Positions 17,276 to 22,710 are shown, counted from the first letter of the stretch. The stretch: DNA of 32,000 nucleotides from Candidatus Heimdallarchaeota archaeon (GCA_030614005.1 JAUWKS010000036.1:226-32225); one strand, 5' to 3'. The notes: a model not told the origin generated them from the letters alone. Program-made: numbers and translations.

Positions 17276-18055
17276 TTAAAGGGAATCCAACATCTCATTT
17301 TCATCTTTGTATCCTAATTTAATAGCTATTGTGTGGAGGGCTTCTGCAACAGCAGCCTGCGTCAATTTGAATTCCTCATTTTCTAGGGCATTTGTTAAAA
17401 ACTCGACAGATTTCTCATCCGGTTTTTTAGCTATTAATTCCGTAATATGACTCTTAACTTCATCCGACTTTTCTTCTTGAAAACAGATTAAAAGACTATC
17501 TAAATCAATACTTGATTTACTTTTTAGTAAGGCAATTGCAGCCTGTACACGAACTTCTTCAGACGAATCCATTTTGAGATGTTTAAAAATAATTTCACCG
17601 AAATCTTCTGAACCGTTTTTACCAAACGCTTCAATAACTGCTTCACGAACCCAATGCGACTCTTCGTTATCTAATATGGGAATCATCAATTTAACAGCCG
17701 AAGAATTCCCAATTTCCCCGAGAGCTTGAGCGATTGCTCTTCGAACAATGGGTGAATTTTCCTCGGCAATGGCTTTACCAAATTCTTTCGGAATTGCAAT
17801 ACCATCAGCTAATTTCGCAAGAGAACGAGCAGCAGCAGCACGGACATCTTCGGATTCATCTCCTTTCAAAGCTGTGAGTAAAGGATCAATTACAGTGTCG
17901 TCACCGATATCTCCAAGACTTTTCGCTGCCTCCTCACGAGTGGCTACATCCCAATTAACTAACTCTTCTATAAAATCACTGACGTTCTTTTTGGTTGTAC
18001 CCAAAGTTCGTTCCCTCAAGTATCTAATAAATGCATTTCCTTCAATATCCTTCAA
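17276..18055 (-). CDS. HEAT (PBS lyase-like) repeat protein
   Basis: About 6-7 repeats, e.g. TREEAAKSLGDIG, VRAAAARSLAKL, VRRAIAQALGEIG, VREAVIEAFGK and VRVQAAIAL. TTG start. Confidence 0.87.
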   Translation of the reverse strand: MKDIEGNAFIRYLRERTLGTTKKNVSDFIEELVNWDVATREEAAKSLGDIGDDTVIDPLLTALKGDESEDVRAAAARSLAKLADGIAIPKEFGKAIAEENSPIVRRAIAQALGEIGNSSAVKLMIPILDNEESHWVREAVIEAFGKNGSEDFGEIIFKHLKMDSSEEVRVQAAIALLKSKSSIDLDSLLICFQEEKSDEVKSHITELIAKKPDEKSVEFLTNALENEEFKLTQAAVAEALHTIAIKLGYKDENEMLDSL

Positions 18056-18126
18056 ATAGCTTTCCCTTTAAGCAAAAGGGAGGAAAAAATTCAAGATATT
18101 ATTCCTCAAAACGAGAAGAACAATAA

Positions 18127-18984
18127 CTAAATTGCAGATAAAATTAATACTACAATAACTAAAATGAGACTAACTAAAGAAACACCTAATGAAATAAATA
18201 AGATAATTCTTTGGAGCCTAAATTCTTTCATCCATCTCATACGAAATTTATTGAAATCATCTTTGTTGATGACAGTTTTGTTCATCTCTTCAAGAGCAGA
18301 ACTTAGTGATTCAAGGTCAGAACGAGTTTTTGCCAAACTTTTCTTGTGAACTTTATCTGCTTCAACAAACTCTTTTTTGGTGAGTAATGTTTTATTTGCA
18401 AGAGTTTCTAAAGATTGATTTACAGATAATGCCATCCTCATAGCAGTATTTTCAGCTATTTTCTCAGCACTTTCATGATCTTGAACATGGCTCGTTAACA
18501 AATCAATAATTTCATTTGGATTGGTCATTATTTTAAATGGCACTTCAAATGATTTGCCGTCAAATCCAACTCTAAAGAATTTAGCTTTGTAATCCTTTTG
18601 ATCCCGACTTTTAGCAAAAGCGTTGCCATCATTAACCATTGCAACAGCTTCTGGTAGCAATGCTTGATAGATTTGTTGAGTAGCAATATCTGTACCTGAC
18701 ATGAATACAGACATGCCTGGGTGTGTATGGTACCAACCTAAAATGACTTCTCCTTTTCCTCTCTCTTCTAATCGCTCTAGTATTTTAAATTGCATCATGT
18801 TATCAAATGAAACAAAAGTAGGATTTGATTCAGCTACTGCAAAAACTGCTTCAGTTATCAGAAGTTTTTCTTTCATTATTTTACCGATAAGATATCCACC
18901 TATTTCTCTTTCTGTATTTGTTGCAGTCCAATCAATTATCTTTGCATATGCTAACGGAGAAATCTCTACAGTAATTTTAGTCAT
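18127..18984 (-). CDS. MPN+/JAMM metalloprotease (Rpn11/CSN5-like) with C-terminal coiled coil and tail-anchor TM helix
   Basis: EREIGG Glu plus GWYHTHPGMSVFMSGTD, an exact H-x-H-x7-S-x2-D motif. The C-terminus is RLQR-IILFISLGVSLVSLILVIVVLILSAI*. Confidence 0.88.
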   Translation of the reverse strand: MTKITVEISPLAYAKIIDWTATNTEREIGGYLIGKIMKEKLLITEAVFAVAESNPTFVSFDNMMQFKILERLEERGKGEVILGWYHTHPGMSVFMSGTDIATQQIYQALLPEAVAMVNDGNAFAKSRDQKDYKAKFFRVGFDGKSFEVPFKIMTNPNEIIDLLTSHVQDHESAEKIAENTAMRMALSVNQSLETLANKTLLTKKEFVEADKVHKKSLAKTRSDLESLSSALEEMNKTVINKDDFNKFRMRWMKEFRLQRIILFISLGVSLVSLILVIVVLILSAI

Positions 18985-19072
18985 TTTAATCGAGAGATTA
19001 TTAATTTCAATTTTTAAAAACCTTTGCAGTTTTATCAGAACTGGTTTATCAATATAGTATAATTGCTCTTCT

Positions 19073-20278: not shown

Positions 20279-20390
20279 TGGTAATCGGATGACATTATAT
20301 GAAAATTCAATTAAATCTTTTCTCATTTATTAATTGAAATTTGTGCATCTTATTACAAAAATGAAAGAAAAAAAGATAGAGATATGGAAA

Positions 20391-21629
20391 TCAAACATAT
20401 ATTTTACATCGATAGCAGTACCAGCGATTGTATTGTTTGATAAATGATAATTTGCTTCCACATTTTGGGCAATGCCCTTTTCGCTTCTTCTTTTTTGATT
20501 CCGATTTAACTTCTTTGGGTTGCTGTACTTTTTCCTTTACAGGTTCTAGCTCTGGTTCAGTTTCACTTAAAATTTCAGTAATGCTTTCTTCGTCATTATT
20601 TCCTTCAATAATGTGCATTGTATCGAGCTTTGATCTGTCAATAGTTTCATAGCTAGCATTCGCATCTGGTTGTGTTTGTGAATCGAAATCATCCATAGGA
20701 GGGACAGGAATCATTAAATCTAATTCAGCTGAAATGTCATCTACTGGTTGACTATAAGCTTCTGTTGAGTCAACTACAGTTAACATTTCTTTGTCAATAG
20801 ATTCAATTTTGTCTTTCAAAGAAGTGATTTCCTGATTTGTACTATCTATCTGAAATTTCTTTGTTTCAACAACTAACATTCGTTCCTCTAATGCTGTCAT
20901 AATTTCAGATAAACTGCTAATTTTCTCATTCAGCATGCTTAATGTTGAAATGAGCTGATTCATATGTTCTTTTTGTGGGACATCTGTTTCAATTTTTGGG
21001 GGCATAGGCAAGGGTTTTACTGTGAATGGTCGAGAATTATTATCTAATTCTTCACCGTCAGCCCTAGCCCCATTACGAGGGAAACCTTCTTTTTCCAGAA
21101 ACATTTTTCCCATCATATTGAAAGCTTCGCTGATATTTTCTCCAGTCAAAGCTGACGTATGCAGATAAGTAGCATCGATGCCTTTCATTTTCTTAATCTT
21201 CCCAAGGAGTTTATCAATATCTTCTTGTTTCACTTTTATTTTATCAGTAAGATCATGTTTGTTCCCTAGGATAATAAAAATCTTCAAAAAGCCCCCTGAA
21301 TGCTCAACTGCCTCTTCTACCCATTGGTCAAGTTTTTCTAGTGTTTCCGGTGAAGTGAGGTCACATACTAGGAATCCACATTTGCATCCACTATAGAATG
21401 ATGAGCGAACATGTTTGTACATTGCTTGACCAGCAAGGTCCCATATTTGGAAGTGAACTTTGTTTTCACCTAGAACTATTGCTTTTGATGCAAAATCTGC
21501 ACCAATGGTCTTAATGTATTCACTCTTAAATCCAACGCCCATAAACTGGGATCGAATGCTTGTTTTTCCTACTGAACCTTCACCCATTAGAACAATTTTG
21601 AACACGAATTCACGTTTTATTTCTGACAA
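20391..21629 (-). CDS. Rab-like small GTPase with long C-terminal extension (coiled coil, acidic linker, polybasic patch, Zn ribbon)
   Basis: G1 GEGSVGKTS, G2 YIKTIGADF, G3 FQIWDLAGQ, FYSGC, LVCDLT, G4 NKHD and G5 TSAL. The end is KKKKRKGHCPKCGSKLSFIKQYNRWYCYRCKIYV. TTG start. Confidence 0.9.
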   Translation of the reverse strand: MSEIKREFVFKIVLMGEGSVGKTSIRSQFMGVGFKSEYIKTIGADFASKAIVLGENKVHFQIWDLAGQAMYKHVRSSFYSGCKCGFLVCDLTSPETLEKLDQWVEEAVEHSGGFLKIFIILGNKHDLTDKIKVKQEDIDKLLGKIKKMKGIDATYLHTSALTGENISEAFNMMGKMFLEKEGFPRNGARADGEELDNNSRPFTVKPLPMPPKIETDVPQKEHMNQLISTLSMLNEKISSLSEIMTALEERMLVVETKKFQIDSTNQEITSLKDKIESIDKEMLTVVDSTEAYSQPVDDISAELDLMIPVPPMDDFDSQTQPDANASYETIDRSKLDTMHIIEGNNDEESITEILSETEPELEPVKEKVQQPKEVKSESKKKKRKGHCPKCGSKLSFIKQYNRWYCYRCKIYV

Positions 21630-21864
21630 TTTTCTTCAGGGCTCCTTCTTTTTTCTAGTTTGCACAAATATTACTTTGTTAAGTTAATAAAGATTCGATT
21701 TATACCAATTAAGTGTTTGCTAATATGTAAATGGTATCATGTTTACTTAAACTTCTGTCTTAGGCAAACATTAAAATTATATGTCCTCTTTTGTAAGATT
21801 TATTAAACTGTTAGTCGTATATTATCTTTAAGAATAATTCATTTACATTTTGGAGTAATAACAA

Positions 21865-22710
21865 TTGTTTAGACGGCAATCTCCTAAAAAGAAGGATACC
21901 ACTCTCTGGTCTGAATACCCGGATTATAATCCAATAAATAATGTCGAAGAGAAACCACTCTATGATGAAGCACGTGTAACTGATGAACATCGTGTTCTTG
22001 GTCAAATCATTCGAGAGAATTGGAATCTTGTTCATCCACTTGCAAGAGACTATATGTTATCTGCTGCTGCTGAATGGCGAAAGTTTATTATTGAACACGA
22101 AATGACCCCAACGGGTTCAAGTGATCAAAATGAAGTTATTGATATTATGAAGCAAGATTTTGAAACAAAAATGCAAAGAATTCTGTTGGAGAAAGATGCA
22201 GAGATTGAAAAAATAAAAATGGACATTGCTGAGAGTTTCAAAGAAGAATTAGAACGAAAGGATGAAGAATTCGAAAATTATAAAATGATGGCTGAATCTG
22301 TCCGAACAAATTTTGATGATACCAAAATTTCTCAATCAAATCTTCAGAGTGATCTTTCAGCTCGTGACAATCGTATTGCTGTTTTAGAGAAATTAGTTGA
22401 AGATTTGCGCGATCAATGCAAATCAAAGGAAATTGAGGCAATGAATGTTCAAACAGGTATTAGTAAGAATTTTCAACAACAAATCAGTGAAATGACTACT
22501 GAGTTATATAATCGTCAAGAGCAAATAGAGAAATTACGTGGAGTGCTTTCTAAAGCTAAAGATCAACTTGTTCATTTGAAAGAAAAGAATGGCGAGTATA
22601 TCCTATCCAGGAAGCAATTGGATGCACGCATAGAGTCTTTGGAACGTATGGTTAACGAAAGAGATCATAAGCTCAAACAAGTTGTAAAATCAATTGAAAA
22701 TTTAGAATAA
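21865..22710 (+). CDS. Hypothetical long coiled-coil protein with small N-terminal aromatic-rich domain
   Basis: 281 aa with E/K/Q/L-rich heptads over about the last 190 residues. TTG start behind GGAG. Confidence 0.78.
   Translation: MFRRQSPKKKDTTLWSEYPDYNPINNVEEKPLYDEARVTDEHRVLGQIIRENWNLVHPLARDYMLSAAAEWRKFIIEHEMTPTGSSDQNEVIDIMKQDFETKMQRILLEKDAEIEKIKMDIAESFKEELERKDEEFENYKMMAESVRTNFDDTKISQSNLQSDLSARDNRIAVLEKLVEDLRDQCKSKEIEAMNVQTGISKNFQQQISEMTTELYNRQEQIEKLRGVLSKAKDQLVHLKEKNGEYILSRKQLDARIESLERMVNERDHKLKQVVKSIENLE

Follow-up and report, generated by a model that had tools for sequence, protein, structure and literature searches.

The coiled-coil gene and the Rab-like small GTPase gene that lie back to back in the Candidatus Heimdallarchaeota DNA studied here probably form a single conserved functional unit, a GTPase and its dedicated partner, set amid unrelated neighbours. 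The pair lies within a stretch of 32,000 nucleotides (the window), whose relevant features are collected in Table 1. The sources named for close homologues agree with a placing of the window in Heimdallarchaeia. Asgard genomes contain dozens of Ras/Rab-like GTPases, for almost none of which a regulator or an effector can be named, and genome layout is rarely useful for matching Asgard GTPases to partners (Tran et al. 2024, PMC10933270). A partner gene that in most Heimdallarchaeia keeps its place next to a single clade of GTPases offers a concrete pair for study. The first-pass annotation had drawn the unit more widely, as a module that also took in an Fe-S protein, a JAMM metalloprotease and a HEAT-repeat protein. 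Neighbouring genes that run in one direction and encode abundant 'eukaryote-like' domain classes make a module only if their linkage outlasts general synteny, which that of the JAMM, Fe-S and HEAT genes does not.

Table 1. Features of the locus, in coordinates of the window
Feature	Position	Strand	Details
HEAT_2/PBS-lyase-type HEAT-repeat protein	17276-18055	-	259 aa; HEAT_2 E 1.8e-33
Rpn11-like JAMM/MPN+ metalloprotease	18127-18984	-	285 aa; Pfam JAB E 1.5e-17
DUF362 + 2x[4Fe-4S] ferredoxin-domain protein	19073-20326	-	Pfam DUF362 E 4e-50; C-terminal hydrophobic helix (membrane anchor)
Rab-like small GTPase	20391-21629	-	412 aa; Pfam Ras E 4e-37
Divergent intergenic region, coiled-coil gene/GTPase gene	21630-21864	.	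235 nt
Coiled-coil partner gene	21865-22710	+	281 aa; no Pfam match
Coiled-coil partner protein (structure model)			small N-domain plus helices at residues 58-151 and 160-280

A Small Family of Coiled-Coil Proteins

The partner gene had been annotated as a long coiled-coil gene, but its product has just 281 residues. Alignments and structure models bear out both of its parts, a conserved N-terminal domain and a coiled coil. The N-terminal domain has a length of ~60-90 residues in the family; it spans residues ~1-70 of the partner, where H42, H57, P58, D62 and S66 are invariant across the family and W53 is nearly so. A Pfam search with the protein matched no domain, and no relative by sequence or by fold was found among solved proteins; the N-terminal domain is previously undescribed. 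A golgin-like tether was considered and rejected for this protein of 281 residues, which has no hydrophobic segment in its sequence and no Pfam domain of the GRIP, GRAB or similar kind.

The family comprises 38 clusters among the 1.84 billion proteins searched, and the 4376 ORFs of the genome include just two members, the locus gene and one divergent paralogue. Among the families of the class, here designated f1 to f7, a profile search of genomes found it in f1, f2, f4, f5 and f6, and found none in f3 and f7. Judged by these searches, the coiled-coil family is small and restricted to Heimdallarchaeia.

The Coiled-Coil Gene Stays beside a GTPase Gene

In f1, the family of the locus, the coiled-coil and GTPase genes are divergent in all 12 genomes. 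Every f2 genome with a member of the coiled-coil family (29 of 29) carries a top-scoring GTPase downstream of that member on the same strand; the GTPase is the next gene in 28 of them and lies 2.5 kb off in the other. At the ORF level, checks that covered five f2 genera (eight genomes) show the two genes separated by 0-20 nt or with overlapping stop and start codons. The same-strand arrangement, with the coiled-coil gene first, recurs in three of three f6 genomes, where the overlap is 4 nt, and in one f5 genome, and a metagenomic family member (P0096) has a Ras-family gene 4 nt downstream. A second, paralogous pair of this operon type is present in three genomes (G000, G009 and G011); the second pair of the genome studied here, on contig C81, is co-directional with a gap of 23 nt.

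Because the flanking genes of the pair vary between families, we attribute its persistence to retained linkage and not to block synteny. The families are kin to each other, however, and so the adjacency may reflect one ancestral event, in which case the genome counts overstate its independence. An extremely improbable alternative is that every adjacency, that of the coiled-coil and GTPase genes included, is a historical accident, small GTPases and coiled coils being abundant in Asgard genomes. The genome does encode 23 small GTPases, and f4 (12 genomes) keeps its members of the coiled-coil family apart from such genes: they adjoin an HhH/L35Ae-like gene or Cgi121, with no GTPase within the flanks examined, and thus the family can exist without such adjacency. 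Accident would nevertheless have to explain why both of the genome's family members adjoin GTPases from one clade of three, and why the adjacency survives partner identities of 20-30%, a change of orientation and duplication, with stop and start codons that in places overlap. Of the first-pass proposal, the link between the GTPase and the coiled-coil gene is strongly supported, by adjacency across four families and by the monophyly of the linked GTPases, whereas a co-regulated system of GTPase, Fe-S protein, JAMM and HEAT protein is not supported.

At the locus itself the GTPase gene has no translationally coupled partner upstream on its own strand; the two genes diverge from a region of 235 nt. 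The locus pair is a variant of the operon form, with a putative divergent promoter and with a polybasic patch and a zinc ribbon at the end of its GTPase. Two sequence blocks in the intergenic region are kept in an alignment of ten f1 genomes, and TATA-like elements are seen there, features consistent with a putative promoter role.

The Rab-Like GTPase and Its Tail

The G1-G5 motifs of the GTPase are intact in an alignment of the linked GTPases (GEGSVGKT, T41, DLAGQ, NKHD and TSAL), the catalytic glutamine being present. The top solved relative of the G domain is the Thorarchaeota Rab 7EZB (E 1.4e-28), followed by Rab25, Rab7 and Ypt6. In a tree built without eukaryotic sequences the coiled-coil-linked GTPases make up one clade (support 96/99), outside which fall 20 of the genome's 23 small GTPases; the locus GTPase falls within the clade and, by alignment, has a helical tail.

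That tail has 230 residues and runs through a helical or coiled segment (~212-285), an acidic linker and a polybasic patch to a C-terminal CxxC...CxxC zinc ribbon. The ribbon, which accounts for the C-terminal cysteines and is kept in f1, is of a generic kind and scores below Pfam cut-offs. A prenylatable C-terminal cysteine motif (CC, CXC or CAAX) was sought in the GTPase and is absent; the protein ends ...CYRCKIYV. The f1 GTPase would have gained the acidic linker, polybasic patch and zinc ribbon, which plausibly localise it, as a prenyl anchor does in eukaryotic Rabs. This variant of the tail provides a handle on the localisation of a prenylation-free Rab-like protein.

From the linkage of their genes we infer that the two proteins bind one another. 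The coiled coil of the partner would pair with the tail helix of the GTPase, or its N-terminal domain would contact the G domain, or both, and the partner would be the cognate effector, scaffold or nucleotide-cycle regulator of the GTPase.

Comparison with Known GTPase Systems

The closest counterpart of the locus pair is the operon of coiled-coil gene followed by GTPase gene in Heimdallarchaeaceae. The partners belong to the same family (matches to the N-domain profile in f2 genomes have E values of 1e-9 to 1e-12), and the GTPases fall in the same clade and share the helical tail. The locus differs in that its genes are divergent and 235 nt apart, not translationally coupled, and in that its GTPase has 412 residues as against ~245, the acidic linker, polybasic patch and zinc ribbon being extra. 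A literature search found no published description of the Heimdallarchaeaceae pair. The G motifs of the locus GTPase are Ras/Rab-like, as are those of the Thorarchaeota Rab 7EZB (Tran et al. 2024, PMC10933270) and eukaryotic Rabs, but the Thorarchaeota protein consists of the G domain alone and is truncated at its C-terminus, whereas the locus GTPase has its long tail and a conserved partner gene.

In eukaryotes, Rab-type switches act with dimeric coiled-coil partners, as in Sec4-Sec2, Rab8-Rabin8 and Rab-golgin pairs. By analogy, the pair described here may work in the manner of a eukaryotic Rab and its coiled-coil GEF or tether, although we do not claim membership of either group; the locus partner, unlike its eukaryotic counterparts, is short and has no membrane anchor.

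A prokaryotic parallel is offered by the Group 1 Rup systems of bacteria, in which the coiled-coil protein that is coupled genetically to a Ras-like GTPase is cytoplasmic and uncharacterised (Wuichet and Sogaard-Andersen 2014, PMC4316618). Rup1 GTPases are without the G3 glutamine and are accompanied by a membrane/OmpA protein and a signalling output gene (PMC4316618), whereas the locus GTPase has DLAGQ at G3 and neither kind of gene is found at the locus. No homology was found between the locus coiled-coil protein and those of Rup systems. Among the Asgard archaea, Tran et al. (2024, PMC10933270) report of MK-D1 that its small GTPase genes do not, as a rule, share an operon with roadblock, longin or TRAPPC3 genes.

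The Neighbouring DUF362, JAMM and HEAT Genes

The other three genes would be separately transcribed, lineage-specific neighbours of the pair. ORF calls and Pfam matches establish that the five genes, their domains and both C-terminal membrane anchors are real, and we confirmed the reported gaps of 235, 88 and 71 nt. The fourth gap, between the GTPase and DUF362 genes, is 112 nt as reported if DUF362 starts at Met17 (20278), the likely start, which matches those of orthologues; with the first ATG it is 64 nt. The co-directional run that had been noted is present but does not end with the HEAT gene: it continues, with similar gaps of 76, 31 and 141 nt, through the gene for a type-2 IPP isomerase, another HEAT gene and the gene for L7Ae, the isomerase and L7Ae genes being housekeeping genes.

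On gene order the five-gene module is not supported, and we regard it as quite unlikely that the five genes constitute one co-regulated, membrane-associated system for GTPase signalling and ubiquitin editing, even in f1 alone. The order coiled-coil gene, GTPase, DUF362, JAMM, HEAT does occur in G000, G010 and G007, but f1 alone keeps it, and there the ~25 kb is collinear throughout. Even within f1, sister species included, genes on the opposite strand interrupt it: in G003, G008 and G004 they lie between DUF362 and JAMM, in G011 immediately behind DUF362; the insert at this boundary is a methyltransferase gene in all four, joined in G003 and G008 by an ORF of 124 codons. G003 has a further opposite-strand ORF (359 aa) between JAMM and HEAT, and in G009 8.7 kb separates DUF362 from JAMM. 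Outside f1, orthologues of two of the genes, JAMM-TM and DUF362-Fer4-TM, are scattered, an outcome that the first-pass annotation had named as counting against its proposal: two closed Heimdallarchaeum-like f2 genomes have them 1.2-1.3 Mb apart, and three further f2 genomes have them on separate contigs. The f6 genomes have the pair, yet no DUF362 orthologue was found in them, and a JAMM query run against a single f6 genome gave only a JAB fragment at a contig edge. Two T-runs follow the GTPase stop codon, and the JAMM start is preceded, at 34 nt, by a TATA-like element; these features of the gaps speak against a single system. In its favour, two of the products are tail-anchored, the GTPase has its polybasic, zinc-ribbon tail, and the genome contains a ubiquitin-like gene whose product ends in GG (contig C123) and three E2-like genes.

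A narrower unit, specific to f1, would add to the ancestral pair only DUF362, co-transcribed with the GTPase and serving as its membrane receptor or redox input. We consider this unlikely. DUF362 is single-copy in the genome and follows the GTPase at ~40-110 nt wherever both share a contig in f1, including in the second genus (G011), but this adjacency adds little, owing to the extensive synteny common to the two f1 genera. Moreover, full-length DUF362-Fer4-TM orthologues in f2 have no adjacent GTPase, coiled-coil gene or JAMM (in one exception, G040, a GTPase lies 2.9 kb away but falls outside the coiled-coil-linked clade), and the T-runs lie between the two genes.

The JAMM protein is a good match to its family (JAB 63.9 bits, cut-off 22.5) and has a catalytic domain, a helical stalk and a C-terminal transmembrane helix that provides a tail anchor. 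Its metal-binding JAMM motif, E...HTHPGMSVFMSGTD (HxHx7Sx2D), is intact, and its closest solved relative, over residues 5-162, is the Rpn11 of Caldiarchaeum subterraneum (6FJU, E 2.3e-30; also 6FJV), with which it shares the catalytic motif. CsRpn11 is described by Fuchs et al. (2018, PMC6043591) as a member of an archaeal ubiquitin-modification operon; the locus JAMM differs from it in having the stalk and anchor and in lying apart from the ubiquitin-like gene. The locus JAMM probably serves, with other partners, as a membrane-anchored isopeptidase for the ubiquitin-like protein of the genome. Both of the genome's JAMM genes have a small GTPase gene one or two genes upstream, the second JAMM gene following one directly, but that second adjacency is confined to f1, and in f2 and f4 the conserved neighbour of the JAMM orthologues is a kinase-like gene and not a GTPase.

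The position of both JAMM genes near GTPases, together with the retention of the GTPase-DUF362 adjacency in both f1 genera, leaves some room for a lineage-specific link to the pair. In its strongest form, which we judge very unlikely, such a link would mean that f1 has redirected the ancestral partner/GTPase switch to the membrane, its GTPase having gained the polybasic, zinc-ribbon tail and working with the adjacent tail-anchored DUF362 and JAMM proteins, giving GTPase-controlled, membrane-proximal deubiquitination. If true, the f1 system would be a prokaryotic analogue of Rab/AMSH-type endosomal sorting, and the placement of both JAMM genes downstream of small GTPases would not be due to chance.

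Finally, the HEAT protein showed no conserved link to the pair. The first-pass reading of it as a scaffold of the adaptor-type alpha-solenoid class did not survive inspection, and an adaptin- or coatomer-type solenoid was rejected: the protein is a short one (259 aa) of the PBS-lyase/HEAT_2 type, its matches are to HEAT_2, HEAT_PBS and other generic HEAT repeats, and no adaptin or coatomer family signature was matched in Pfam. Other Pfam matches are at the level of the repeat (Vitellogenin_N, 29.2 bits, cut-off 24; Cnd3, below cut-off), and the NCBIfam matches, to phycobilin-lyase-type repeats, are all far below cut-off. The genome holds ~11 HEAT loci, and the HEAT gene of the window is one of two that flank the IPP isomerase gene.

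The Five-Gene Order and General Collinearity

The five genes that the first-pass annotation had joined into one candidate module (for a coiled-coil protein, a Rab-like GTPase, a DUF362 Fe-S protein, a JAMM protease and a HEAT-repeat protein) are real, as judged from their open reading frames and Pfam matches. The intergenic gaps reported with them are also correct, the 112-nt gap requiring that the DUF362 gene start at Met17, the position at which its orthologues begin. Close homologues are filed publicly under Heimdallarchaeota or Heimdallarchaeaceae names. The closest solved structure to the JAMM is a Caldiarchaeum Rpn11 homologue (6fju, E 2.3e-30), with eukaryotic Rpn11, CSN5 and AMSH ranking behind it, and that to the GTPase is a Thorarchaeota Rab, followed by eukaryotic Rabs.

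Coordinates of the features discussed (window positions unless a contig, C, or an inspected locus, L, is named; G000 is the window's genome)
Feature	Position	Strand	Remarks
HEAT_2-type gene	15228-16061
Type-2 IPP isomerase	16093-17199
HEAT_2/PBS-type repeat protein, 259 aa	17276-18055	-
JAMM (JAB/MPN+ protease), 285 aa	18127-18984	-	Intact HxHx7Sx2D, helical stalk, C-terminal hydrophobic helix
DUF362 + two-cluster ferredoxin domain	19073-20326	-	C-terminal hydrophobic helix
Ras-family GTPase, 412 aa	20391-21629	-
Divergent intergenic region	21630-21864
Coiled-coil partner, 281 aa	21865-22710	+	No Pfam match
Polytopic membrane protein	23787-24611	+	Pro/Ser-rich linker, C-terminal zinc ribbon (CEYCG..CSVCG)
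Second pair of G000, 245 aa then 277 aa	L124:1476-3070 = C81:16475-18069	-	23-nt gap
GTPase paralogue, 552 aa	L123:1666-3324 = C63:3665-5323	-	Polybasic/zinc-ribbon tail CPICG..YIRQYNKHYCVKCGRY
Protein after 552-aa paralogue, 174 aa	L123:1096-1620 = C63:3095-3619	-
Small GTPase and second JAMM of G000	L125:1561-3270 = C9:8560-10269	-
Ubiquitin-family protein of G000, 77 aa	C123:22269-22502	-
GDFHQSN protein/JAMM-TM loci in f2, f4	L031-L034, L036-L040 around position 9500; L120-L122
Coiled-coil-family members beside Cgi121	L076-L080, L091, L092, L101-L103
277-283-aa family	L033:8162-8995, L059:3871-4704, L076:4552-5403, L094:2492-3298
f1-type coiled-coil protein in G034	L050 = C164:1-744

Across the genus, represented by 10 other genomes at 47-88% protein identity, the five genes keep their order. 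Given that collinearity there also covers about 25 kb on both sides, this order shows only general collinearity. Nor is the shared direction of the genes specific to a module, since the same-strand run continues past the HEAT gene, with similar gaps (76, 31 and 141 nt), into genes for a type-2 IPP isomerase (TIGR02151, 401.6 bits), another HEAT protein and the ribosomal protein L7Ae. The genus members in which the region was recovered share the HEAT/IPP isomerase/HEAT order. At the other end, the coiled-coil gene is followed by the gene for the LipS1 lipoyl synthase.

Within the window's family (f1 of the seven families of class Heimdallarchaeia, f1-f7), the run is interrupted at several points. 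DUF362 is separated from JAMM by a 124-aa open reading frame and a SAM methyltransferase gene, both on the opposite strand, in G003 and G008, by an opposite-strand methyltransferase gene in G004, and by a distance of 8.7 kb in G009; in G011, of the second genus, the methyltransferase gene immediately follows DUF362. An opposite-strand 359-aa open reading frame separates JAMM from HEAT in G003, and the gap between these two genes is about 1-1.25 kb in G002 and G005. In the window itself, runs of T come after the stop codons of the GTPase, DUF362 and JAMM genes, and 34 nt upstream of the JAMM start there is a TATA-like element. These features agree with separate transcription units, though as evidence they are weak in a genome of 34% G+C.

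Full-length orthologues of both tail-anchored proteins (hereafter JAMM-TM and DUF362-Fer4-TM) are present outside f1, but they are dispersed. In two closed, Heimdallarchaeum-like genomes of f2, the JAMM-TM gene lies at 1.41 Mb (G016) and 1.52 Mb (G026) and the DUF362-Fer4-TM gene at 0.11 Mb and 0.29 Mb, and in G012, G030 and G040 the two are on separate contigs. No GTPase, coiled-coil-family or JAMM gene was found within about 9 kb of seven f2 DUF362 loci, except for a GTPase gene in G040, 2.9 kb away, which we set aside as a link because it is not recurrent and falls outside the clade of GTPases linked to the coiled-coil family. Two f2 genomes have HEAT-like matches roughly 3 kb from DUF362, and these too were not recurrent. 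We also considered a larger conserved block, the IPP isomerase gene being about 5 kb from the coiled-coil/GTPase pair in the two closed f2 genomes, and rejected it, as the genes in between are unrelated and none is a HEAT gene. From f6, the three genomes, which do have the pair, yielded no DUF362 orthologue, and one genome searched with a JAMM query yielded only a JAB fragment at a contig edge. Thus, with its order kept only as general f1 collinearity, its run interrupted and its JAMM and DUF362 orthologues dispersed in f2, the five-gene module does not hold. The locus is a variant small-GTPase/partner pair, of a divergent, zinc-ribbon type.

An f1-specific connection in function between the GTPase and DUF362 or JAMM is a low-probability alternative; it draws on the placement of both JAMM genes of G000, one or two positions downstream of a small GTPase gene. 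The second JAMM (329 aa) has an intact motif and a TRAP_beta-like C-terminal domain, and its gene comes directly after that of a divergent small GTPase of 210 aa, 87 nt away. This second adjacency is kept only in f1 and is absent from f2, f3 and f4.

Linkage of the Coiled-Coil Family to One GTPase Clade

The N-terminal domain of the partner has no Pfam match even at E<=10. Across three families, H42, H57, P58, D62 and S66 never vary and W53 is almost invariant. When 1.84 billion proteins were searched with a profile of the domain, no more than 38 clusters (at 50% identity) were recovered. In all of these the domain is N-terminal, with a coiled coil of 100-650 residues after it. The domain was modeled with moderate confidence (pLDDT 77.5), and the full-length model (pLDDT 83) adds helices spanning residues 58-151 and 160-280. 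Searched by fold, the domain model had no relative in the PDB; a search of AFDB clusters returned only uncharacterised or auto-named proteins, aligned across the same N-terminal ~90 residues, which we read as family members. By this profile the family is present in f1 (11/11 genomes), f2 (29/30), f4 (12/12), f5 (1/1) and f6 (3/3) and absent from f3 (0/22) and f7 (0/2). One contig of an f2 bin, G034, encodes a coiled-coil protein of the f1 type, 57% identical to the window's, and is probably mis-binned.

Linkage was scored by matching the positions of coiled-coil-family genes to those of GTPase hits from a profile built on the neighbouring GTPases. The GTPase gene is downstream on the same strand in all 29 f2 genomes that have a family member, and is the next gene in 28, with gaps of 0-20 nt or a stop/start overlap in the eight genomes (five genera) inspected at the level of open reading frames. 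A 4-nt overlap joins the two genes in f6, one adjacent pair was found in f5, and a metagenomic family member (P0096) has a Ras-family gene 4 nt downstream. The divergent arrangement of the window recurs in 12 of 12 f1 genomes, and a second, more divergent pair in operon form is found on contig C81 of G000 and in G009 and G011. The pair's flanks vary: LipS1 and DUF362 in the window, Cgi121 and an uncharacterised 277-aa protein in f6, and others in f2. The exception is f4, whose family members adjoin an HhH/L35Ae-like gene or Cgi121, with no GTPase gene in the flanks inspected. The comparison of gene positions shows that linkage between the partner and GTPase families has been retained long. Families of one class are non-independent samples, many of these genomes are fragmented, incomplete MAGs, and gene starts are inferred.

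Within the divergent intergenic region, the blocks CAATTAAGTnTTTGCTAnTATGTAAA and CCnCTTTTGTAAGATTTATTAAAC are conserved across ten f1 genomes and are candidate promoter or operator elements of the pair.

Other coiled-coil-family members, including long paralogues (286-744 aa), adjoin the gene for the KEOPS subunit Cgi121 and not a GTPase gene, and the coiled-coil/GTPase operon of f6 has Cgi121 as its divergent neighbour. A 277-283-aa family without a Pfam match, which has no homologue in G000, adjoins Cgi121, coiled-coil-family and JAMM-TM genes in different families.

When the 23 small GTPases of G000 were placed with 18 from other loci in a maximum-likelihood tree, the linked GTPases all fell in one clade (support 96/99), to which G000 contributes only three: the window gene, the C81 gene and a paralogue on contig C63. 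The N-domain profile has just two matches among 4376 open reading frames of G000, each adjoining a GTPase of this clade. The window GTPase has intact G1-G5 motifs, catalytic glutamine included, and a helical tail follows the G domain in every linked GTPase. In f1 the tail also carries an acidic linker, a polybasic patch (KKKKRK) and a strictly conserved zinc ribbon (CPKCGSKL..YNRWYCYRC), for which Pfam at E<=10 gave only generic zinc-ribbon matches, all below cut-off. Zinc-ribbon tails occur repeatedly, on several proteins of G000, and the polytopic membrane protein with such a tail in the window is conserved in the genus.

The C63 paralogue has a zinc-ribbon tail like that of the window GTPase and no coiled-coil-family neighbour. 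The 174-aa protein encoded after it matches the first longin domain of FUZ/MON1/HPS1 with a score equal to the Pfam cut-off (26.1 bits). The two may represent a Rab-like GTPase and a neighbouring longin protein of Mon1 type. On the paralogue's other side are genes for a 493-aa multi-zinc-ribbon coiled-coil protein and an Arf-like GTPase.

A Possible Role for the Pair

The partner and the GTPase are probably paired in function, and, judged from their linkage, direct binding is slightly more likely than not. The partner would hold the GTPase by helix pairing, through its N-domain, or both, and would act on it as a cognate effector, a scaffold or a regulator of its nucleotide cycle. In f1 the acidic linker, polybasic patch and zinc ribbon would localise the GTPase, substituting for the absent prenyl anchor. 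One reading, modelled on Sec2/Rabin8 and golgins and not on homology, is that the pair could act as a membrane tether or GEF.

We found no description of the pair in the literature. Asgard Rabs have been described as bare G domains in which C-terminal extensions are absent, and the small GTPase genes of MK-D1 lie, as a rule, outside operons with roadblock, longin and TRAPPC3 genes (Tran et al. 2024, PMC10933270). The pair resembles the bacterial Group 1 Rup system, in which a Ras-like GTPase is coupled to a coiled-coil protein, but that GTPase is without the G3 glutamine and the system has further components that are absent at the window locus (PMC4316618).

Neighbours of the Membrane JAMM and Ubiquitin Genes

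We found no description in the literature of an Asgard JAMM with a tail anchor. In f2 and f4, the conserved neighbour of JAMM-TM is a 345-351-aa protein with a GDFHQSN motif and no Pfam family, which by eye appears kinase-like and has no homologue in G000. Its gene is immediately upstream of JAMM in 9 of 9 f2 loci and lies at a distance of 1.7-2 kb in 3 of 3 f4 loci, and the two may constitute a conserved pair. Finally, G000 encodes a ubiquitin-family protein with a terminal GG (Pfam ubiquitin, 49.9 bits) about 4 kb from its Cgi121 gene, and three E2-like genes are located elsewhere in the genome.
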